In this document: positions 90 through 28,237 of the stretch, piece after piece
How the letters are laid out: each line of letters starts with the position of its first letter
Numbering within the stretch: position 1 is the stretch's first letter
Assembly (NCBI RefSeq): GCF_988242995.1
Contig: NZ_OZ547043.1
Strand: one strand, 5' to 3'
Length of the DNA: 64,000 nt
Notes under the pieces: model-generated
Told to the model about the DNA's origin: nothing
Database searches by the model: none
What the model saw: only the letters and a program-made list of their open reading frames with translations
Translations under genes and position numbers: made by a program

Positions 90-98
90 AACAAGATG

Positions 99-1274
<1,176 letters not shown>

Positions 1275-1455
1275 TCAGAATTAACTTAACTGTGAATCAT
1301 GATGTTTTTAGCATCCTGATAAGAGTTAAAAGTTTTAACGCTACGTCGATAGCTGGTCAACGCAACGAAAAACAATTCAGATTTTCTTTATAAGAATAGC
1401 TGATATTTATTAAGTTAATATTAAGCAGTGAAATTTAGTCTATAAGATAATTGGC

Positions 1456-1487
1456 AAAAAAAAGCCCGATGCAATATACGCCGGGCT
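1456..1487 (-). terminator. Putative rho-independent terminator downstream of gnd
   Basis: Stem agcccg (1463-1468) / cgggct (1482-1487); the plus-strand A8 run at 1456-1463 is a U-tract on the minus strand after the hairpin, just past the gnd stop. Confidence 0.5.
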
Positions 1488-1513
1488 TCAATTTTATTGT
1501 TGGTTAAATCAGA

Positions 1514-2920
1514 TTAATCCAGCCATTCAGTATGGAACACACCTTCTTTATCAGTACGCTTATAGGTATGCGCACCAAAGTAGTCACGTTGAGCCTGGAT
1601 CAGGTTAGCCGGCAATACGGCTGCACGGTAGCTGTCGTAGTAGGCAACGGCAGCAGAGAAGGTCGGTACCGGGATGCCATTTTGAACCGCGTAAGCAACA
1701 ACATCACGTAACGCCTGCTGATACTCATCAGCGATATTCTTGAAGTACGGATCCAGCAGCAGGTTAGCAATACCCGCATTCTTCGCGTAGGCATCGGTGA
1801 TCTTCTGCAGGAACTGCGCACGAATAATGCAGCCGGCACGGAAAATCTTCGCGATCTCACCGTAATTCAGATCCCAGTGGTACTCGTCAGACGCTGCGCG
1901 CAACTGAGAGAAACCTTGTGCATAGGAAACAATTTTACCGAGATACAGCGCACGGCGTACTTTCTCAATAAACTCAACTTTGTCACCCGCAGGGTGCGCT
2001 TTCGGACCAGTCAGGACCTTAGAGGCAGCAACGCGCTGATCTTTCAGTGAGGAGATGTAACGCGCAAAGACCGATTCAGTAATCAGCGACAGCGGTTCAC
2101 CGAGATCCAAAGAGCTCTGGCTGGTCCACTTACCGGTACCTTTGTTAGCCGCTTCGTCCAGAATGACATCAACAAGGTATTTACCCTCTTCATCTTTTTT
2201 GGTGAAGATGTCTTTTGTGATGTCAATCAGGTAGCTGCTCAACTCACCGTTGTTCCACTCAGTAAAGGTACTGGCCAGCTCTTCATTAGAGAGGTTCAGG
2301 CCGCCTTTCAGCAGAGAATAGGCCTCAGCGATAAGTTGCATGTCACCATATTCAATACCGTTGTGAACCATCTTCACATAGTGGCCTGCACCATCCGCAC
2401 CGATGTAAGTCACGCAAGGCTCGCCATCTTCAGCAACTGCGGCGATCTTAGTCAAAATCGGCGCAACCAGCTCGTAGGCTTCTTTCTGACCGCCCGGCAT
2501 GATAGAAGGCCCTTTCAGCGCCCCCTCTTCACCACCGGAAACGCCGGTGCCAATGAAGTTGAAACCTTCAGCGGAAAGTTCGCGGTTACGACGAATGGTG
2601 TCCTGGAAGAAAGTATTGCCACCATCAATAATGATGTCGCCTTTATCCAGATACGGTTTCAGAGAATCAATGGCTGCATCGGTACCCGCGCCTGCTTTCA
2701 CCATTAACAGGATACGACGAGGCGTTTCGAGGGATTCAACGAACTCTTTCACCGTGTAGTAAGGCACCAGTTTCTTGCCCGGGTTCTCGGCAATCACTTC
2801 TTCGGTCTTTTCACGGGAGCGGTTGAACACGGAGACGGTATAACCACGGCTCTCGATGTTGAGCGCCAGGTTGCGCCCCATCACTGCCATGCCGACGACG
2901 CCGATCTGTTGCTTGGACAT
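1514..2920 (-). CDS. gnd: 6-phosphogluconate dehydrogenase, decarboxylating
   Basis: 468-aa ORF; [30 protein letters not shown] is the conserved Gnd N-terminus; correct length. Confidence 0.95.
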
Positions 2921-3100
2921 TACATACTCCTGTCAGGTGTGGTCACCGCGCGACGTATGCGCGGCTTGAATGTATAGCAAATGTTAACCTATGTCCGTTT
3001 GAAAAAAAACGAAAATCAATTTAACGAATGTCGGAAATAGGTAACCAGTTGCTGTTTCATAACATATGCTGCGCTCCGATAAATACTTATTCTCTGTTAT

Positions 3101-3967
3101 TCACTTTCCAATTAATTGAAATAAATATTGACCATACTGTGTTTTCTCCATAATCCTGGCCTCAGTCAGGACCTGCTCCGCAGTCAGCCATTTATTGCGC
3201 AAAGCTATTTCTTCTAAGCAAGCAACTTTATATCCTTGACGCTTTTCGATAGTATGAACAAATTGAGAAGCTTCAATAAGGCTATCATGTGTTCCCGTAT
3301 CCAACCAAGCGAACCCCCTTCCCAAGAGTTCTACATTAAGCATATCCCGCTCAAGATACATTTTATTTATTGAAGTGATTTCAAGCTCACCACGAGGAGA
3401 TGGTTTAACTTGCTTTGCAAAATCCACCACCTGATTATCATAGAAATAGAGTCCAGTTATGGCCCAATTAGATTTTGGTGTTTGTGGCTTCTCTTCGACA
3501 GAGAGCACCTTAAATGATTCGTCAAATTCTACAATGCCAAATCGTTCAGGATCCATAACCTGATAGCCAAAAACTGTAGCTCCTCTTTTTCTGGAAGCCA
3601 CCTGTTCCAGTTTGCGACCGAAACTTTGACCGAAGAAAATATTATCCCCTAAAACCAGGGCACATTCATCACCAGCGATGAACTCTTCACCAATAATAAA
3701 AGCCTGCGCCAACCCATCAGGACTTGGTTGAATAGCATATTGAAGGTTAATTCCAAACCGGGATCCGTCTCCTAGCAGGCGTTTATACGATGATAAGTCC
3801 TCGGGAGTAGAAATAAGAAGTATATCTTTTATCCCTGCCAGCATTAATACTGAAATAGGGTAATATACCATTGGCTTATCATAAATAGGTAGGAGCTGTT
3901 TTGATACCCCTCGAGTAATCGGATAAAGTCGGGTACCAGAACCTCCCGCTAATATAATTCCTTTCAT
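3101..3967 (-). CDS. rmlA: Glucose-1-phosphate thymidylyltransferase
   Basis: 288 aa; [46 protein letters not shown] is the RmlA/RfbA nucleotidyltransferase signature. Confidence 0.85.
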
Positions 3968-4111
3968 TGCTTACCTTCTCTATATAATCTTCAAATATTA
4001 TCGCATTAACTTTTAAGTAAATTTTAAAAATGCAGTGCAATAAACATTCAGTTTAAATAAGCTTGACATTAGAAATATCTCCAGCTTATTTACTTGTATT
4101 AAATGTCACAT

Positions 4112-4642
4112 TTAATCTAATTTTTTTAGGTATGTCGCTGGAGTGCCGCCTACTAATTCCTTTTCACCGACATCTTTTAGAACTACAGAATTTGCTGCAA
4201 CTATAGCTCCATTGTTAATAACAATAGGTCCCAAAATAACAGATCCAGTGGCCAATATAACATCGTTGCCAATAACAGGACGAAGTTCCTTGTTATATTT
4301 CATATCAAGTGTTTTTGCACCAATAGTGACATTTTGATATATAGTGCAGTTTTCACCTATACGCGCCGCACCGATAACTATGCCAAAGGTATGTGGTATG
4401 AAAAGTCCACCTTTAATCTCACATTCAGTTGCGATCTCAATGTTAAAAATGAGGACGTTTAAAAGTGAACAACATTTTGATATTCTTCTGAATCCTTTTT
4501 CTTTTAAAGAATAGGATGTCCTATATATTACATTGGGAATCAAACGAGGGCTAAAAATTCTAAAATAGTCTTTAAATTTAAAAGCAGATTCATTCCCAAT
4601 CAATTCTTTATATCTTTGAATATCTTGTTGTATATTTTTCAT
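4112..4642 (-). CDS. Hexapeptide-repeat O-acetyltransferase (CysE/LacA/WbbJ-like)
   Basis: 176 aa; left-handed beta-helix hexapeptide repeats (IGAARIGENCTIYQNVTIGAK, IGNDVILATGSVILGPIVINNGAIVAANSVV). Confidence 0.7.
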   Translation of the reverse strand: MKNIQQDIQRYKELIGNESAFKFKDYFRIFSPRLIPNVIYRTSYSLKEKGFRRISKCCSLLNVLIFNIEIATECEIKGGLFIPHTFGIVIGAARIGENCTIYQNVTIGAKTLDMKYNKELRPVIGNDVILATGSVILGPIVINNGAIVAANSVVLKDVGEKELVGGTPATYLKKLD

Positions 4643-5699
4643 TTTTTATTCCTGCGTATCCTGCTAAAAACACCAGATATAGCCAAAACATAGGGAAAAG
4701 GAAGGTTAGTTTAAGGCAGGGGAGCAGGCATAATAACATCAATCTAAGTGAGAATCGTGAATATTTTAGGAACAATACCAGCCATGATACACTAAGGATA
4801 CTGCCTAACCAAAAGCCAAAAACGATGAAATTACTTCCGAATAACGTCATATCAAAAAGAGACTGAAAATAGTCTGGTGCATTGTCATAATACCCAACCA
4901 TACCGTGGCCAATATTAAAAACAAGAGGGCTATCAAAGAATGATTTCATCAACTCAAGTTTATATGATGTGCTACCATCACTACCAGATGAAATATAAGA
5001 CATACGCCACATAATGTTTTGATATATTATCGGAGAAACCAGTACTAACGATATTAACCCGGTTGCGATCCACTTTAGTGTCAATCTACAGGTAAGAATA
5101 AAAAATAACATAACGCAGATAACAGAGAAAGTCGAACCGGATAACACCATACACATTAATGCTATATAACTTAGTAATGAGTTATTATTAGCTACAATAT
5201 ACCTCATCACTAATAATGTGACCATATGTATAGAGAAAATACTCGGTTCGGCAAATACTCCTGTTGCTCTGTAATCGAAACCGTCATAACTGCTACGGTG
5301 TGGAGGACCTAACAAGAACTTCCCATAATCGATATCCACATTAATGATTTTGAAAGCTAAATACTGCAACAGGAAAGTAAAAATGTGAAACTTGATGCAA
5401 AAATCGATCACCTTAAGCCAGTCACAGCTTTTAATTCTTTTTACACAATAGCTATAGATTGATGGTACTGTCAATGCATAAAAGCAGCATACCAAAGTAA
5501 AAATAAATATTTTATCCACTACGCCAAAGAATACATGAAAAATAAGCGATGTGAACGATACCAGAATAAATATCAACCCTTGCGATGAAACCTTACATTT
5601 ACCCTGTATAAACACCAGAAAAAAAACGCAAAACTGAATAATAAAAAAAACCGGACTAAAAATGAAAAGAGTACCAAAAAGAAAATATATATTAGCCAT
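4608..5699 (-). CDS. wzy: O-antigen polymerase
   Basis: 363-aa very hydrophobic, AT-rich, multi-spanning membrane protein with a large internal loop, located in an O-antigen cluster; no close sequence recognised, as is typical for Wzy. Confidence 0.55.
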   Translation of the reverse strand: MANIYFLFGTLFIFSPVFFIIQFCVFFLVFIQGKCKVSSQGLIFILVSFTSLIFHVFFGVVDKIFIFTLVCCFYALTVPSIYSYCVKRIKSCDWLKVIDFCIKFHIFTFLLQYLAFKIINVDIDYGKFLLGPPHRSSYDGFDYRATGVFAEPSIFSIHMVTLLVMRYIVANNNSLLSYIALMCMVLSGSTFSVICVMLFFILTCRLTLKWIATGLISLVLVSPIIYQNIMWRMSYISSGSDGSTSYKLELMKSFFDSPLVFNIGHGMVGYYDNAPDYFQSLFDMTLFGSNFIVFGFWLGSILSVSWLVLFLKYSRFSLRLMLLCLLPCLKLTFLFPMFWLYLVFLAGYAGIKNEKYTTRYSKI

Positions 5700-6669
5700 T
5701 TCTTTCCCTTTTTGAATAACCCTCTATATAATACATAGCCAAGACTAACTTGTAAAATATTGCTCTGATTTTAAATTTATTCCTATTGTCTAACTTATTA
5801 AGAACAACCCTTACAAATTTATTAAGTTTAATACTATTAGCGCAAGACAAAGCTACTCTAAGCACAGTTGACTTCATACTACCTTTCCGCTCAGCCTGGG
5901 GAAATAGCAATTTATCTACAATTTCAGGATGTTTCTTAACCAAAAGCGGTACTGAGTACCTTGCATAAGGAATCATTCTTTCACATGCCCTATCGAGGGT
6001 AGGGGTGTCGTTATCGTAGAGTAAAGCATCGCTACAAAAGAAAAACGGAACAGAGCTTAAACGAAGCCGCGCCCCAAATTCTTCATCCTCACAACCATAA
6101 TGCCGGAATGATTCATCGAACCCTTTCTGTGCTTCAAACTCGGATTTGCTAATCAGGAAAGCATCGCTTGCAAAGTAGCGATACTCAATTTTAACAGTTC
6201 CTTTATATCTATTCCCCAAATATCGGGAGTCAAAGTAGTGTAGGTAATTGCTGTCGCGGGTTAAATCTTGCCGACATCTGACATTAGCCCTTGCTACAAA
6301 AGGCTTCTCGCAGGACAAAATCATTGAATGCAGGCTATCAAGACAACCTTGCTGGAGCAAATTGTCTATGTCGACAAAAAATAACCATTCATTGCTTGCT
6401 GATTTCGCAGCTCTATTTCGAGAAAAGGCGCGACCTTCATTTATTTCATTACGTAAGAACACTAACCGCCATTCGCGCTCATTAAATTTTTCAGAAAAGG
6501 CAATAGTTGTGTCTTCCAAATTCACCTCAGAACCGTCATCGATGATGATAAGTTCAATATTCTTTAGTATATTCTTTTGTCCATGAGTATTAGCGAGCAG
6601 AGCTGAGATGAAAGTTTCTACTTTTGATGAGCTACCGAGAACAGGGCTAATAATGCTAATCATTTGCAC
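5692..6669 (-). CDS. Family 2 glycosyltransferase
   Basis: 325 aa; N-terminal ISIISPVLGSS...ELIIIDDGS matches the GT-A nucleotide-sugar binding and DxD region. Confidence 0.75.
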   Translation of the reverse strand: MQMISIISPVLGSSSKVETFISALLANTHGQKNILKNIELIIIDDGSEVNLEDTTIAFSEKFNEREWRLVFLRNEINEGRAFSRNRAAKSASNEWLFFVDIDNLLQQGCLDSLHSMILSCEKPFVARANVRCRQDLTRDSNYLHYFDSRYLGNRYKGTVKIEYRYFASDAFLISKSEFEAQKGFDESFRHYGCEDEEFGARLRLSSVPFFFCSDALLYDNDTPTLDRACERMIPYARYSVPLLVKKHPEIVDKLLFPQAERKGSMKSTVLRVALSCANSIKLNKFVRVVLNKLDNRNKFKIRAIFYKLVLAMYYIEGYSKRERNG

Positions 6670-7918
6670 GTTCCATTAAATATTTTTTAGTTACAGTTAA
6701 ATACCAATAGATTGAAACTAATATTGAAAAGAAAAGAGAAATATATAATGCAATAAAGATGCTTGGTATCGGCGCAGTAATAGCAGAGACTTTCAATGCG
6801 CTATAGATGCTCAGACATAATAAAAATACAAGACACCATTTAATGGTGTAATAGTAGTAACTCTTTGATGCAAGGTTAGCTGCGTTGATCAAATTATCGA
6901 CAGCAAAAAATGGCAACAAAAAGACCAGAATATTATAATAATTTGCCGATGTGACATAGTCATGGCCGAAAACAAATGTAAAGATATATGGTGTAAATGG
7001 CTTTAACGAAAATGAGAATAACGAAAAAGCAGTAAACATTATTATGGATAAGACAATAAGATTTCTGTTGAAAATTTTCCACTTCTTGTTTTTGTATAAA
7101 AGGATGGGGGCCAAAACCTGTATCAATATTAAGGTTACTGAAGCTGTATTCTCATTAATCTGTGATGCAGCACTATATATACCATAATCAACTGGTGAAA
7201 TGTTACCTTTCAGTAAGAATCTGTCAATTTTCATAAATAATGCATAGGCTACAACCCCTCCCCAGATGAAAAAACTGCGTTTTAACAGGAAGCCTATATC
7301 ATTTAGTCTAACAAGACTTATTCTGGGGAACTTACAAATTGAACAACAGTACATGACTATCGCAACAAAAATGCCCTCCAGTACCCATGGCAATGCAAGG
7401 AACTTGATATCGAAATTTATCACTATAAATAAGTAATATAGTGTTAGTATCCTGATAATGCAGCCAAAGATCTGGATGATACCTGAGAGGTATAATTTCC
7501 CTTCAGATTGCCATTTTGCAAAGCCTACCATCAATGGCTCTCGTGCCAAGAGAGTAACGGACGAAAATAGCAAGTAATACCTTACAATCTCACTTTCAGC
7601 TGTAATTGCGAGGATTACACTGACAGTAGCGACTAATGATGATACAGATAATCTTGCAAAAAAAATTGTATTACAATAAATCAATTTCTTGCGTAATGAA
7701 TAGCGCGATAACTGAGGGACAACTGATTCTGACCCGCACATCCAAGTTAGTGACATTAAAATATTTGAAAAAGTAAATGCATATTGCCAAATGCCAAACT
7801 GCTCAATTGGAAGCGCTTTTGAGATAAGATGGTTAGCATAAATAGCACTAATAATCTGTACAAATCGCTCAAACAACAGGACAAGCAATCCCGCAATAAT
7901 TGATTTATTCACGAACAC
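6656..7918 (-). CDS. wzx: O-antigen flippase
   Basis: 420-aa polytopic membrane protein (about 12 hydrophobic segments) of the polysaccharide-transporter type, located in the O-antigen cluster. Confidence 0.7.
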   Translation of the reverse strand: MFVNKSIIAGLLVLLFERFVQIISAIYANHLISKALPIEQFGIWQYAFTFSNILMSLTWMCGSESVVPQLSRYSLRKKLIYCNTIFFARLSVSSLVATVSVILAITAESEIVRYYLLFSSVTLLAREPLMVGFAKWQSEGKLYLSGIIQIFGCIIRILTLYYLFIVINFDIKFLALPWVLEGIFVAIVMYCCSICKFPRISLVRLNDIGFLLKRSFFIWGGVVAYALFMKIDRFLLKGNISPVDYGIYSAASQINENTASVTLILIQVLAPILLYKNKKWKIFNRNLIVLSIIMFTAFSLFSFSLKPFTPYIFTFVFGHDYVTSANYYNILVFLLPFFAVDNLINAANLASKSYYYYTIKWCLVFLLCLSIYSALKVSAITAPIPSIFIALYISLFFSILVSIYWYLTVTKKYLMERAND

Positions 7919-8903
7919 CTTCCGGTGAGATTATTTTTTTCACCCATTGCTGTAAAGAATATTGTTCTCTATTTTTGTAATTAACATTCGGTGCGTTAAT
8001 AAAATTCTCAGGTACTATGACCTGATGTCTTTTTACTACGCAGATCATATTAGGGTCATAAAAATCGTACTTTTTTATGTCTTCATTCGTGGTAATAATT
8101 TTTTTATTTAACCCGATGCATTCTATTGTTCGCATTGTCAGACCGCGCTGCCTTGGATGATGAATATCGATGATAATTTCAGAGCACTTCATCATTTCAA
8201 CAACTTCAGATTGTGATAATGGTTCAAATTCTACGTCTGTATTTATTTTTTTTCCGCTTAATAAATTCTTCAGTTTAAAAATAATTTCATTCTGAAAATA
8301 AAAGAATGTATAAGCATTAATGTCTTTAATATTTCTTACTTCAGCAGTAATGCAATTGACCAAATCAACGCGATCTGAATGAGCTGTACCGATAAAACAA
8401 AGATCGTATTTTAGCGAATGCTCATGCTTATTGTCAAAACGCGGCGAATAAAACAGCGGAAGAAATGTTACTCCCCATTTTTCAGCATCATCACGTTCAA
8501 AGGTGAAAACCGAATCAAACTGATTTATTATTCTTTTAACTTTGGGTTTGTTATTGACCGAATCCCACAAATACATAATGAATTTACAGTGTTCATTTTT
8601 TACTTTAACGGTTTTTTTTATGGCCTGTAAAATTTCATGATCAATTGCTTCAGGATTTAAAATAAATACATTATCGATTTTTTTGTTGACAATTTGCCGT
8701 AGTAATTTTTTATAATAACTTGAGTTATACTTTTTAATCAAAATACTACAACCTAACCTTAGCAATGATTTATAAATAGCATTATTGCTCGGCCGCTCAT
8801 CCCAATAGATAACGTCATTAGTTAATTCTAATTCTTTGACTATTTCTTTTTCATAATTAAAAAACTTGGGAGAAATAAACAATACTGTATTTTTGTACCC
8901 CAT
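7905..8903 (-). CDS. Hypothetical protein, candidate glycosyltransferase of unrecognised family
   Basis: 332-aa soluble ORF, AT-rich, overlaps wzx start by 14 nt (operonic). No motif I can assign; context suggests the second sugar transferase of the O-unit. Confidence 0.45.
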   Translation of the reverse strand: MGYKNTVLFISPKFFNYEKEIVKELELTNDVIYWDERPSNNAIYKSLLRLGCSILIKKYNSSYYKKLLRQIVNKKIDNVFILNPEAIDHEILQAIKKTVKVKNEHCKFIMYLWDSVNNKPKVKRIINQFDSVFTFERDDAEKWGVTFLPLFYSPRFDNKHEHSLKYDLCFIGTAHSDRVDLVNCITAEVRNIKDINAYTFFYFQNEIIFKLKNLLSGKKINTDVEFEPLSQSEVVEMMKCSEIIIDIHHPRQRGLTMRTIECIGLNKKIITTNEDIKKYDFYDPNMICVVKRHQVIVPENFINAPNVNYKNREQYSLQQWVKKIISPEGVRE

Positions 8904-8904
8904 T

Positions 8905-9720
8905 TTATCTTCCCTGAGATTTTTTGAATTCTTTTATCATATCCACTAAATCATTCAATACATTTTTATAATGATGTGGGACTATTGAGTTAGTTTTTTG
9001 CATCGTGATAACAGGAAATGTTTCGCATGTATCATTCTTGTGCCACTGTATATTACAACCTGTTTCAGATATTAAAATGTCAGCGATGGATTTTGCTGAA
9101 ACATTATATCCAGATGCAATGTTATAAATATCTCCGGGTGAAGTTATAGATTCTGCTAGCTTATACATGACGGCAACCACATCATCTACCGATACATAAT
9201 CCTTCTCGTAGTCAGAGCTAACATACATATCGACATGATTGTTATTGATTGCATTTTTTATTATTTGCGGAAGGAATAACGGGCTATTTAGTGCGAGTCC
9301 ATAAACATTTGATGGTCGGACGACCACAACGTTCTTTTTACTTCTTAGACATAACTCTTCAGCAACCAATTTTGTCAAATTGAAAAGCTTGCGACCATCA
9401 TTGTGACAAATTTTTAGATCTGAATTTTCTGCAGAATCTCTGGAGTTCAAATATACACGAGTGGAAGAAATGTAGACTAATTTCTGGAAATTAGCTTGTG
9501 TAAGTATTACTTTTAGCTTATTGACATTTGCATCCACAACATTATAGGCATCACTTTTGCAATCGCCATAGCCTGCGCAATAAAAGACGGTACCAAGGTC
9601 AATTTCTTTGTTATAAAGATAGTCTCTGTCAGGGCAGAAACATTCTTTATTCATTGATTCTAAAAATGTTACCATATGTGAACCAATGAAACCTGAACTA
9701 CCAACGACTGTATACTTCAT
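8905..9720 (-). CDS. NAD(P)-dependent sugar epimerase/reductase (SDR family), candidate dTDP-4-keto-6-deoxyhexose 4-reductase
   Basis: 271 aa; N-terminal Rossmann motif VVGSSGFIGSHMV; lies between the rmlC-like gene and the orphan ORF; does not resemble canonical RmlD. Confidence 0.55.
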   Translation of the reverse strand: MKYTVVGSSGFIGSHMVTFLESMNKECFCPDRDYLYNKEIDLGTVFYCAGYGDCKSDAYNVVDANVNKLKVILTQANFQKLVYISSTRVYLNSRDSAENSDLKICHNDGRKLFNLTKLVAEELCLRSKKNVVVVRPSNVYGLALNSPLFLPQIIKNAINNNHVDMYVSSDYEKDYVSVDDVVAVMYKLAESITSPGDIYNIASGYNVSAKSIADILISETGCNIQWHKNDTCETFPVITMQKTNSIVPHHYKNVLNDLVDMIKEFKKSQGR

Positions 9721-16882: not shown

Positions 16883-17069
16883 GCCTGATGCGACGCTGAC
16901 GCGTCTTATCAGGCCTACAAGACCCGAGCACAGAACCGTAGGCCGGATAAGGCGTTCACGCCGCATCCGGCATTCAGTGCCTGATGCGACGCTGACGCGT
17001 CTTATCAGGCCTACAGGTCCCGAGCACAGAACCGTAGGATGGATAAGGCGTTTTACGCCGCATCCGGCA
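16883..17069. repeat. BIME: four alternating REP palindromes
   Basis: gcctgatgcgacgctgacgcgtcttatcaggcctaca occurs twice, alternating with inverted gtaggccggataaggcgttcacgccgcatccggca-type copies, between wcaK and wzxC. Confidence 0.85.
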
Positions 17070-18576: not shown

Positions 18577-19971
18577 TCAATATGCCGCTTTGTTAACGAA
18601 GCCTTTGAATACCGTCAGGAAAACGATTTTGATATCGAACCAGACGCTCCATTCGCGGATGTACTCAAGGTCGAACTCGACGCGTTTTTCCATTTTCTCC
18701 AGCGTGTCGGTTTCGCCGCGCCAGCCATTAATCTGCGCCCAGCCGGTAATGCCCGGTTTCACCTTATGGCGCAGCATGTAGCCTTCAATGAGCTGGCGAT
18801 ACTGTTCGTTATGCGCCACCGCGTGCGGACGTGGACCCACAATCGACATCCCCCCGGTCAGCACATTGATAAACTGCGGCAGTTCATCCAGCGAGGTGCG
18901 GCGCAGAAAGTTCCCCACTTTGGTGACGCGCGGATCGTTCTGCGTCGCCTGAGTCACCACTTTGTCGTTCTCCATCACTTTCATAGAACGGAACTTCCAC
19001 ACTTTGATCGGCTTGCCATCCATGCCGTAGCGAGTCTGGCGGAAAATAACCGGCCCCGGTGAGCTCAGTTTCACCGCCAGCGCAATGCAGCACAGCACCG
19101 GGGAGATCAGCAGCAGGATAAGCGTCGCCAGCACAATGTCTTCTGCACGTTTTATCAGACGGTTAACCCCGGAAAGCGGCGTGTCATACAGCGGCACCAC
19201 CGGTACGCCGTTCATCTCTTCGATACGGGAATGGAGAATGTTGAAGGTAAAGACATCGGGGATCAGCAGCACCGAACAGGTGGTGTCCGCCAGTTGATGG
19301 ACCAGTTTTTTCACTCGCGCGCCGTCGCACATCTGCATCGCGATATAGACGTTATGAATCTTGCCCGCTTTCGCATCCTCGACCAGTTGTTGCAGATTGC
19401 CCGCCCAGTCGTTAGAAACGCCGCCCGGTTTTGGGTCGTGGTATACGCCCACCACTTCAAACCCTAACCACGGCTGATTACGGAAGCTCTCCATCAGCAT
19501 TTGTCCGGCGGCTAAATCCCCCGCCACCGCGACCATCCGCTTGTTATAGCCATGATTACGCAGCCAGCCCGCCCCAATGCGAATACATGAACGGCAAACC
19601 ACCAGTCCGATGCTGGTCAGCCCATACCACGCCAGCCAGATTTTCAGTTGCGTGTCGAAATCATTGTTGAACGCCACCAGTCCGGCGCTGAAAATCACGC
19701 TTAAGGTCCAGTTTTGTAGCAGCAGGGCAAATTCTGTCGCGGCCCGAACACCGCGCCATGAGCGATAAAAATCGGTGATGCCGCCCAGCATCTGGAACAC
19801 CACCAGCGTAATCAGCGCCACCAACAGGTGCATGTAGAGGAATGACAGTCCGCTGACTTCGCAAACCAGCCATAGCCCGGCAAACATGATGGTGATATCT
19901 GAAAAGCGTTGCACCATAGAGATTAACGATGCATTGGTTTTCGCTCGCTCGCGCTTTTTTAGATTTGTCAT
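18577..19971 (-). CDS. wcaJ: UDP-glucose:undecaprenyl-phosphate glucose-1-phosphate transferase
   Basis: 464 aa; N-terminal membrane domain and C-terminal sugar-transferase domain (PGITGWAQINGWRGETD). Confidence 0.9.
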   Translation of the reverse strand: MTNLKKRERAKTNASLISMVQRFSDITIMFAGLWLVCEVSGLSFLYMHLLVALITLVVFQMLGGITDFYRSWRGVRAATEFALLLQNWTLSVIFSAGLVAFNNDFDTQLKIWLAWYGLTSIGLVVCRSCIRIGAGWLRNHGYNKRMVAVAGDLAAGQMLMESFRNQPWLGFEVVGVYHDPKPGGVSNDWAGNLQQLVEDAKAGKIHNVYIAMQMCDGARVKKLVHQLADTTCSVLLIPDVFTFNILHSRIEEMNGVPVVPLYDTPLSGVNRLIKRAEDIVLATLILLLISPVLCCIALAVKLSSPGPVIFRQTRYGMDGKPIKVWKFRSMKVMENDKVVTQATQNDPRVTKVGNFLRRTSLDELPQFINVLTGGMSIVGPRPHAVAHNEQYRQLIEGYMLRHKVKPGITGWAQINGWRGETDTLEKMEKRVEFDLEYIREWSVWFDIKIVFLTVFKGFVNKAAY

Positions 19972-19991
19972 CGTTGTTCCTGTTATATTGT

Positions 19992-20095
19992 CGCCTCGCC
20001 CCTCACCCCGGCCCTCTCCCCAAAGGGGCGAGGGGGAGAAGAAAGTTCCGTGCTCACTTCTCTCCGCAGGCAGTAGAGCGTCAGGGTGAGGGGGA
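19992..20095. repeat. GC-rich imperfect palindromic element
   Basis: tcgcccctcaccccggccctctcccc aaa ggggcgagggggagaag ... cagggtgaggggg; nested complementary C-rich and G-rich blocks between wcaJ and cpsG. Confidence 0.4.
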
Positions 20096-20106
20096 AAGTA
20101 ATGACA

Positions 20107-21477
20107 TTACTCGTTCAGCAACGTCAGCAGAGTTCGCGTTCGCGCTTCCATCAGCGGCACATCACCGCGCGATTCCACATTCAGGCGCACCACCGGTTCG
20201 GTGTTGGAGGAGCGCAGGTTAAAGCGCCAGTCGGCAAAGGTCATGCTGATACCATCGGTGCGATCCACCGCCAGCGCCTCACGACTAAAATGCTGTTCGA
20301 CGCGATTAATCGCCTCAACGGGTTGCGCCAGTTTGCTGTTGATCTCACCGCTTGCCGGAAACGCCGCCATCCGGTCGCGCACCAGTTCGCCCAGCGTTTT
20401 TCCTTTCAGGCACACCAGTTCGGCTACCAGCAGCCACGGGATCATGCCGCTGTCGCAGTAAGCGAAATCACGGAAGTAATGGTGAGCGCTCATTTCGCCA
20501 CCGTAGATGGCGTCTTCCTTGCGCATCCGTTCTTTAATAAAGGCGTGTCCGGTTTTCGACATTACCGGGGTGCCGCCTGCGGCAGTCACCACATCAATAG
20601 TGTTCCAGGAGAGACGCGGATCATGGATGATCTTCGCGCCGGGATTTTTTTCGAGGAACGCTTCTGCCAGCAGGCCGACAATGTAGTAGCCCTCGATAAA
20701 CTGCCCTTTTTCGTCAAACAGAAAACAGCGGTCAAAATCGCCATCAAAGGCAATGCCCATATCCGCGCCGTGTTTGATGACCGCATTGCGGGTGTCGTCG
20801 CGGCATTCCGGCAGTAGCGGGTTAGGAATACCGTTGGGGAAATTGCCGTCCGGCGTGTTGTGCACTTTGATTAATTCCACGGGTGCGCCGAGGGCGTTAA
20901 AGCGGGCTTCGATAGCGTCCACCACCGGACCCGCCGCGCCGTTCCCGGAGTTGATCACCAGCTTGAGCGGCGTGAGGTTTTTGACATTGATATAACCGAA
21001 CAGGTGATCAACGTAAGCATCACGCAGATTGATTTGCTGATAGCGACCGCGTTTGGTTTCATCGACGGGAGGAAAGTCGTTGGCTTCAGCCAGACGCTGG
21101 ACGTCGCGCAGTCCGGTATCTCCGCTGATCGGGCGAGCCCCCTCGCGAACCAGCTTCATGCCGTTATAATCCATCGGATTATGGCTGGCGGTAACTTCAA
21201 TGCCGCCATCCACGCCGAGATGGAACGTGGCGAAATAGATCTCTTCGGTGCCGGACATACCAATATCCAGCACGTCAACGCCCGCATCCTGTAAACCTTT
21301 TGCCAGCGCCAGTTTTAAGGTTTCGCTGGTGAGACGGACATCACCGCCTAACACAATGGTTTTCGGTTTGAGAAATTCGCCATAAGCGCGACCAATGCGC
21401 CAGGCAATATCTTCATTCAATTCTTCGCCTAATTTCCCGCGAATATCATAGGCTTTAAAGCAGGTTAATTTTTTCAT
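20107..21477 (-). CDS. cpsG: Phosphomannomutase
   Basis: Conserved start [35 protein letters not shown] at the internal Met (ORF track begins 16 codons upstream at 21525); TASHNP active-site motif present. Confidence 0.9.
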
Positions 21478-21567
21478 ATCGTTACCCTTTTTCAGGCAAT
21501 AGTTGGTCCTGACCGAAGCGGCCAATTTTATTTTTGTCGTTATTTACACCGCGGTTTCGCATTCATT

Positions 21568-21668
<101 letters not shown>

Positions 21669-21669
21669 T

Positions 21670-27490: not shown

Positions 27491-28237
27491 TCAGCTTTTG
27501 TTATATAAGGCTTTCGTCTTTGAGGTAGTACGTTGGCGTAAATGCCAGGATAATTCTGCCCAGAAGCCAGGCACATGTAATATTTGCCGTTGGACTTTTT
27601 TGGCGTCAGCACACAATTCCATATTATTGGTGGTTGATACCCCACCCATGGAAAATTCAGACACCAGGCCATTGAGTTTTTTAAATGCATAACCGGCTTT
27701 ATACATTTTAGCCGCCAGCGCGTAATCGGAAGATACTTTATATTCCAGGTCATAACGCCATTTTTTCAAGCCGGATACCGGGAAAAATATCGCCTGATGG
27801 CTGGCGGGCAGGCTGTGATAAATATACCAGCCCGGTTTGGCGCTACGTTTAATTTTATGCCCGTCGCCAAAATCCAGCAGCGCATCGCCGGTGATCATCA
27901 TGTTATCTTTTTGCATTTTTAACTTACGGACAAAATTTGCGGCATCCTGATGAAAAATATCGCCCGAATTGAGAAACAACGCGAACTTGCCTTGTGCCAT
28001 CGTAATGCCTTTGTTCATGGCGTCGTAGATACCGTTATCTGGCTCGCTGACAAAGCGTAGGTTATAGATACCATTGAGATTTTCCAGATACTCACGGGTG
28101 CCGTCATTGGAACCGCCATCGACAACAATCCATTCGAAGCTGATATCGTCCGCCTGCGCCAGATGCGCCAGCGAGGCATGTGTTTTGACTATCCCTTCGA
28201 GGTTACGAAACGCGACAGTGATTATGCTAAGCAACAT
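27491..28237 (-). CDS. wcaE: Colanic acid glycosyltransferase WcaE (GT2)
   Basis: 248 aa; [23 protein letters not shown] with the [12 protein letters not shown]2 motif. Confidence 0.9.

Follow-up and report, generated by a model that had tools for sequence, protein, structure and literature searches.

BoxC was described as a 56-bp repeat of E. coli with about 32 copies (PMC2267715), and was later redescribed as the PIT elements and as the intrastrand triplex motif 'TMECO' (PMC4666352). Descriptions of the family date from 1992-2015 (Bergler 1992; Bachellier 1999; Hoyne & Maher 2000, 2002; Holder et al. 2015), and our search found no later literature on TMECO. The TMECO pattern reads 5'-CCCTCNCCC N3-6 GGGNGAGGG N3 GGGNGAGGG-3', where a second loop of TTA defines type A and one of CCG type B, and at five K-12 loci two motifs are found in inverted configuration, each time as one type A and one type B (PMC4666352). 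The isolated G-rich strand, studied as type B mm oligonucleotides by CD, NMR and melting, forms a stable intrastrand purine-motif triplex in vitro, and in vivo DMS footprinting of a K-12 site with the same sequence as the motif treated here detected no stable triplex (PMC4666352). It should be noted that purine-motif triplexes do not form in RNA (PMC4666352), and therefore only hairpins matter on the transcript. Holder et al. catalogued 62 TMECO loci in 56 strains, where the loci vary more than control spacers do, and described the motifs as deletion-prone and length-polymorphic with a 'palindrome effect' (PMC4666352). According to the summary of Hoyne & Maher 2002 in PMC4666352, PIT elements have neither promoter nor terminator activity and do not impede RNA polymerase.

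REP/BIME sequences are a second group of GC-rich intergenic palindromes that are polymorphic between strains and can sit between genes of one operon. Within operons, as in malE-malF, REP hairpins protect the upstream mRNA from 3' exonucleases. In the present study we compare these systems with a GC-rich palindromic element located between cpsG and wcaJ in the colanic acid cluster of E. coli.

The repeat in the cpsG-wcaJ spacer

The window, by which we mean the whole 64 kb stretch of DNA that was analysed, contains the colanic acid cluster. Gene annotation was taken from the RefSeq genome of strain 90-9280, which was found to be 100% identical to the window over 19800-20300, and RefSeq has no annotated feature on the element in the spacer. 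The coordinates of all features are given in Table 1.

Table 1. Features at the cpsG-wcaJ junction, in positions of the window
Feature	Positions	Strand	Description and basis
wcaJ	18577-19971	minus	Downstream gene at the junction; RefSeq annotation of strain 90-9280
cpsG	20107-21477	minus	Upstream gene at the junction; RefSeq annotation of strain 90-9280
cpsG-wcaJ intercistronic spacer	19972-20106	minus	135 nt here, 54 nt in K-12 and the majority of E. coli; RefSeq annotations and alignments
wcaJ Shine-Dalgarno AGGAA	19977-19981	minus	Followed, after 5 nt, by the ATG (19971-19969)
Long-allele-specific segment	19987-20102		116 bp; at this place the short allele has a 35-bp segment with a hairpin, TAGCCCCTTACCCGCAGTGGGGTAAGGGAAGATCC; alignments
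56-bp BoxC unit	19998-20053	minus	Triplex motif and a ~20-nt 'head', GAGCACGGAACTTTCTTCTCC; head compared with other copies
Intact BoxC/TMECO type B motif	19999-20034	minus	Exact pattern match; equals TMECO no. 3 of PMC4666352, Table 1
Type B motif, C-stem	20034-20026	minus	
Type B motif, loop after C-stem	20025-20021	minus	
Type B motif, G-stem 1	20020-20012	minus	
Type B motif, loop CCG	20011-20009	minus	
Type B motif, G-stem 2	20008-20000	minus	
Type B motif, final G	19999	minus	
Decayed inverted partner	20058-20093	plus	TTCTCTCCGCAGGCAGTAGAGCGTCAGGGTGAGGGG; type-A-like, loop TCA instead of TTA
Outer inverted pair	19999-20017 / 20075-20093		19 nt, 84% complementary; arms CCCCTCACCCC... / ...GGGTGAGGGG
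Inner inverted pair	19994-20003 / 20024-20033		10 nt, 100% complementary; CCTCGCCCCT / AGGGGCGAGG
Second inner inverted pair	19999-20009 / 20025-20035		11 nt, 91% complementary
Further inverted pair	20033-20041 / 20057-20065		9 nt

There is hardly any doubt that the element is a BoxC repeat (PIT element, TMECO triplex motif) arranged as an inverted pair. Read on the minus strand from 20034 to 19999 it gives CCCTCGCCCCTTTGGGGAGAGGGCCGGGGTGAGGGG, which is letter for letter the K-12 motif TMECO no. 3, labelled 'B mm' in Table 1 of PMC4666352, and the CCG in its second loop makes it type B. The window has a single exact match to the TMECO pattern (minus strand, 20034-20000), and 100 shuffles gave no match. 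The surrounding unit gave a 56-nt blastn alignment with 91% identity to the K-12 copy at yagE-ISEc19, the partner half is 6 substitutions away from the pattern, and the layout of the pair, with the third strands outermost, matches the K-12 pair 17+18 at lldD-trmL.

The copy number was determined by blastn in 5426 complete E. coli genomes. The 56-bp unit was found at 28,077 places in 4610 of these genomes (median 6, maximum 15 per genome), of which 15 were on plasmids, and the core was also present upstream of fabI (envM), the site where BoxC was first named. The right half together with the spacer is single-copy and confined to the cpsG-wcaJ locus. The element shares with the described family its pattern, the sequence of K-12 copy no. 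3 with its type B loop, the 56-bp unit, the intergenic position (here between the CDSs of cpsG and wcaJ), the dispersed low-copy distribution, the arrangement as an inverted pair (here type B with a decayed type-A-like half) and the variation in length and presence between strains. It differs in that the partner half is decayed and locus-specific, that the copy lies inside an operon between co-transcribed genes, and that K-12 has no copy at this locus; in the supplement of PMC4666352, which carries no gene names, wcaJ, cpsG, manB and colanic do not appear. The element belongs to an already described family and is therefore not new, and it is hardly an attenuator. We suggest that it should be annotated as a BoxC/TMECO repeat pair, in preference to labels such as ORF, terminator or novel RNA.

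In the BoxC pairs that we compared (K-12, from Table 1 of PMC4666352, and loci L015, L021, L023, L032 and L037) the type A half, with TTA, always faces a type B half, with CCG. When the two halves are paired as one long hairpin these loops form a 3x3 mismatch, hence the pair is never a perfect palindrome, and this mismatch might shield BoxC pairs from the cleavage of long perfect palindromes.

Membership in the REP family was rejected. With 3 mismatches allowed, the REP consensus GCCGGATGCGGCG...CTTATCCGGCCTAC matched the window only at 17034-17068 and nowhere in the element, which is built of three homopurine/homopyrimidine blocks and not as the simple imperfect palindrome of REP. The copy at 17034-17068 (minus strand, downstream of wzxC) reads GCCGGATGCGGCGTAAAACGCCTTATCCATCCTAC, and shows that REP is present elsewhere in the window in a form unlike the element.

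Two plus-strand ORFs, 19886-20089 and 19929-20222, run across the element with Pro/Ser/Arg/Gly-rich translations. Since they overlap with the beginning of wcaJ, which is encoded on the other strand, they are regarded as spurious, and the element is non-coding.

A preliminary description of this DNA had reported a nested GC-rich palindrome between wcaJ and cpsG, distinct from REP and giving rise to spurious Pro/Gly/Arg-rich ORFs, and had proposed another small repeat family as one possible origin, with a search for further genomic copies as a check. The palindrome is confirmed by inverted repeats located at 19994-20095 and by folds that beat those of shuffled sequences. Also the distinction from REP stands, with REP copies at 17034-17068 and in the cpsB-cpsG spacer, and so does the judgement on the ORFs. 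The family proves to be BoxC / PIT / TMECO, by an exact match to the pattern, and the copy search finds the left 56 bp dispersed and the full-length element single. Compared with the position given, 19992-20095, the allele-specific segment is slightly wider.

Predicted folds of the spacer and its transcript

The sense (minus) strand RNA of the 135-nt spacer was predicted to fold with -59.0 kcal/mol (z = -3.84), and none of 200 shuffles was as good. The plus-strand RNA gave -56.6 kcal/mol (z = -2.45), and the DNA folds had z about -3 on both strands. The predicted sense-strand fold is a three-way junction with the outer inverted pair as its outer helix; it stops 17 nt ahead of the wcaJ ATG, and the wcaJ Shine-Dalgarno, part of a block AACAGGAACAACG conserved in nearly all orthologous cpsG-wcaJ spacers, is unpaired. 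According to this model the two halves would pair in the polycistronic wca transcript as a junction of about -59 kcal/mol, leaving the Shine-Dalgarno free. An Rfam covariance-model search of the element returned chance-level matches only, with E of at least 0.6 and scores far under the gathering scores.

A structure of this stability directly after the cpsG stop codon resembles a Rho-independent terminator or attenuator, and could be read as an intra-operon attenuator, pause site or terminator that lowers the expression of wcaJ and the later genes. A further point for this reading is that colanic acid assembly begins with WcaJ, a membrane protein of which an excess could plausibly be harmful. 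However, there is no U-run after the structure on the sense strand, which goes on as CGAGGCGACAAUAUAACAGG (tail CGAGGCGACAAUAUAAC), and a promoter and terminator scan found nothing promoter-like or terminator-like inside 19987-20102 and predicted no promoter in the gap between the genes. The genes downstream serve the same pathway in the same operon, and the reporter tests of PIT elements, as summarised in PMC4666352, showed no terminator activity and an unimpeded RNA polymerase. We therefore consider regulation of this kind very unlikely. The preliminary description had suggested a transcriptional pause or attenuator next to a structured spacer; the former is not borne out, while the minus-strand RNA folding which it had proposed as a check did give a stable structure.

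Further, the sense strand contains four G-runs with short loops, GGGGAGAGGGCCGGGGTGAGGGG, about 27 nt upstream of the Shine-Dalgarno, and these might be thought to form an RNA G-quadruplex tuning the translation of wcaJ. We give this a next to negligible probability, as the adjacent complementary C-rich stem should win the pairing, as NMR of the DNA oligonucleotide gave a triplex and not a quadruplex (PMC4666352), and as the short allele of E. coli and many relatives have no four G-runs.

On the DNA level the G-rich strand, when single-stranded, can fold as an intrastrand purine-motif triplex or as a hairpin, and sites of this kind are hot spots of small deletions and replacements. The minus strand, which carries the intact G-rich motif, should be the lagging-strand template, as judged from the map position in K-12 and the negative GC skew of the plus strand, and folding could promote slippage there. 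Such folding and instability would explain the 116-bp versus 35-bp dimorphism in E. coli as well as the full, fused, decayed and reduced forms seen in related genera.

Allelic variation in E. coli

The 116-bp long allele is present in about 10% of the complete E. coli genomes (508-514 of 5426). The full-length element was detected by blastn in 514 genomes, once in each, and the long allele in 508 of the 4839 genomes where the cpsG-wcaJ junction was located. The majority of E. coli, among them K-12, O157:H7 and ST131, carry a short allele, in which the spacer is 53-55 nt and a 35-bp segment stands in place of 19987-20102. The short allele contains a 9-bp hairpin, CCCTTACCC-loop-GGGTAAGGG, with a stem that is kept and a loop that differs among strains.

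Alignments of the two alleles show a replacement rather than a clean insertion, with no target-site duplication. None of the SNPs within about 180 nt of the junction is linked to the allele state, the flanks of the window, which carries the long allele, are closest to those of K-12, a short-allele strain, and identical WcaJ proteins are found beside both alleles. Because of these three observations we read the alleles as an old dimorphism which recombination appears to have reshuffled against its flanks, in agreement with the mosaic, recombining history of this region beside the O-antigen cluster (PMC3158064). At the level of the population, the locus is a clean illustration of the length variation that Holder et al. 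linked to these motifs, with two alleles, both read as old, in about 10% and 90% of the genomes.

It could be argued that the long allele is a recent MITE-like mobile insertion, or that recombination brought it in from another genus, since it is found only in about 10% of the genomes, full pairs are common at this junction in the Enterobacter clade in both orientations, and recombination is frequent beside the O-antigen cluster (PMC3158064). We regard this as quite unlikely. A MITE or recent insertion was rejected on the grounds that the right half and spacer are single-copy in every genome and that the alleles differ by a replacement without duplication; unlike a MITE, the full-length element occurs once per genome at one locus. 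Also the decayed partner speaks against a recent copy, and BoxC is almost absent from plasmids. Foreign import was rejected since the flanking SNPs are unlinked to the allele and the flanks nearest to those of a short-allele strain; a very short conversion tract may be involved.

One variant of the long allele was seen in E. coli E69, where 8 nt are missing at the 3' outer arm (GGGGTGAGG joined to CGAC, versus GGGGTGAGGGGCGAGGCGAC) and the 5' arm shows an A-to-C change. The outer stem is weakened by these changes, with z = -1.9.

The K-12 BoxC pair at lldD-trmL was followed in the same genome collection, and at least 5 length alleles were found. In O157:H7 a slip deletion has removed 12 nt between the two G-stems, and what remains of the triplex motif is a plain hairpin. 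One strain retains the last G-stem only, and E2348/69 has none of the pair left. In E. coli M6 the centre of the pair is replaced by a foreign 35-nt palindrome with perfect arms, CTGTCTCTTGATCAGATCTCCTGATCAAGAGACAG, which we take to resemble two IS50 inside ends placed back to back. In an independent data set, these alleles reproduce both the tendency to deletion and the 'palindrome effect' found by Holder et al.

The same junction in other Enterobacteriaceae

Outgroup loci were retrieved by a degenerate pattern of the WcaJ N-terminus, followed by location of the cpsG stop. This gave 29 loci, and the spacers of 28 of them (all but L031) were read; of the closest Escherichia species the set includes E. 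whittamii, but not E. albertii, E. fergusonii and E. marmotae. Each of the 28 spacers contains either a BoxC pair or a hairpin rich in GC, both orientations being represented, and the wcaJ ribosome-binding site is left free. The suggestion of a structured spacer in the preliminary description is in accordance with this, as every readable orthologous spacer folds into a GC-rich hairpin or junction. When these 28 spacers and the two E. coli alleles were folded, the median z was -3.3 and 25 of the 30 were below -2, the structure ending 1-21 nt upstream of the wcaJ ATG. The short hairpin of K-12 alone is marginal over shuffles (z = -1.66 / -1.86).

The sequences that fill this position fall into several forms. 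A CCCTTACCC hairpin in a spacer of 53-54 nt is found in E. whittamii, Salmonella enterica arizonae and three Citrobacter species, from which we infer that this form is probably the older one among Escherichia, Salmonella and Citrobacter. A CCCTCTCCC/GGGAGAGGG hairpin, corresponding to the Watson-Crick part of the BoxC motif, is found in Leclercia, Silvania, Lelliottia nimipressuralis and Pseudescherichia. BoxC pairs, intact or decayed, are present in an Enterobacter MAG, RIT714, Enterobacter kpr-6, Pseudenterobacter, Lelliottia V86_10 and WAP21, Huaxiibacter and Leclercia UBA7405; they stand in both orientations relative to the operon, and orthologous pairs in other genera are clean A+B. In RIT714 (Enterobacteriaceae) three tandem partial copies of the inner unit lie between the halves and the spacer reaches 247 nt, and in Enterobacter kpr-6 the pair is fused into a single hairpin bearing both outer third strands. 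Siccibacter, Kosakonia and one MAG (bran_bin.7) have hairpins of unrelated sequence.

An unsupervised run of MAFFT and RNAalifold detected 0 compensatory pairs, as the 3' arm was misaligned in two Citrobacter sequences. In a register-anchored comparison, where the register was picked to fit the stem, compensated changes were found at stem positions 2, 5 and 7, one of which is the only pair in which the short hairpin and the outer stem of the BoxC pairs differ. We take this as weak support for a selected stem.

The BoxC pair of the long allele sits where every enterobacterial relative examined keeps a GC-rich stem-loop. It seems that a stem-loop is needed at the junction, or is at least tolerated there and retained, and that the BoxC pair may fill this role, a role suggested by conservation only. 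Whether this hairpin slot is under selection for a stem-loop is in our judgement about an even matter. If it is, the BoxC pair would take over the job of the ancestral 9-bp hairpin, and by analogy with REP the most likely function would be to hold up 3'-to-5' exonucleases or to delimit segments of the mRNA, and not to terminate transcription; to this specific function we give less than an even chance.

A serious competitor, with a probability somewhat below one half, is that the BoxC pair is a neutral passenger, selfish or accidental and with no role in the operon, and that the hairpins of the relatives are decaying remnants of an old pair. Most of the short hairpins use BoxC arms exactly, either CCCTCTCCC/GGGAGAGGG or CCCTTACCC/GGGTAAGGG, and the latter is one compensatory pair away from CCCTCACCC/GGGTGAGGG; many of them could be inherited BoxC remnants and not selected structures. 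Further, the right half at 20058-20093 is decayed, the complete loss of a pair is tolerated at lldD-trmL, and the functional tests of the family, as summarised in PMC4666352, were negative. On the other hand, the hairpins at this junction in Siccibacter, Kosakonia, the MAG bran_bin.7 and two Citrobacter strains are unrelated or compensated, none of the 30 spacers is without structure, and among E. coli strains the stem is kept while the loops vary.

Taken as a whole we find it likely that the locus is explained by a BoxC pair that fills a hairpin slot and consists of indel-prone triplex-motif DNA. The presence of the slot across genera and the alternation of hairpins and BoxC pairs in it are the only parts that go beyond the literature we found, and they do so modestly. 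With a stem-loop at the junction in every genus sampled, the locus offers a simple case for asking whether BoxC-type structures affect segmental mRNA stability at all, in the setting of a long polysaccharide operon.

We further speculate that the junction could be a conserved slot in which, across Enterobacteriaceae, simple stem-loops give way to BoxC pairs and the reverse. In that case BoxC halves would either give rise to functional stem-loops of the intercistronic mRNA or derive from them. As another possibility, gene conversion might copy BoxC pairs preferentially into hairpins of similar sequence that already exist. We know of no dedicated transposase (RAYT) for BoxC, and such copying, if true, would be a first hint of how a repeat without a transposase spreads. 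Both of these broader ideas are advanced as unlikely ones.

Two minor observations were made next to the element. A weak terminator-like match over the cpsG stop codon (minus strand, 20126-20102; 10 pairs, 3 GC; tail TTACTTTCCC) is probably due to chance. In the spacer between cpsB and cpsG (21478-21669) an 88-nt REP/BIME insertion at 21568-21655, missing from K-12, consists of GTCGGATGCGGCGTGAACGCCTTATCCGACCTAC on the minus strand and an inverted partner and is bounded by a repeated CGTCGCATCAGGC; REP polymorphism in the wca spacers has already been published (PMC3158064).
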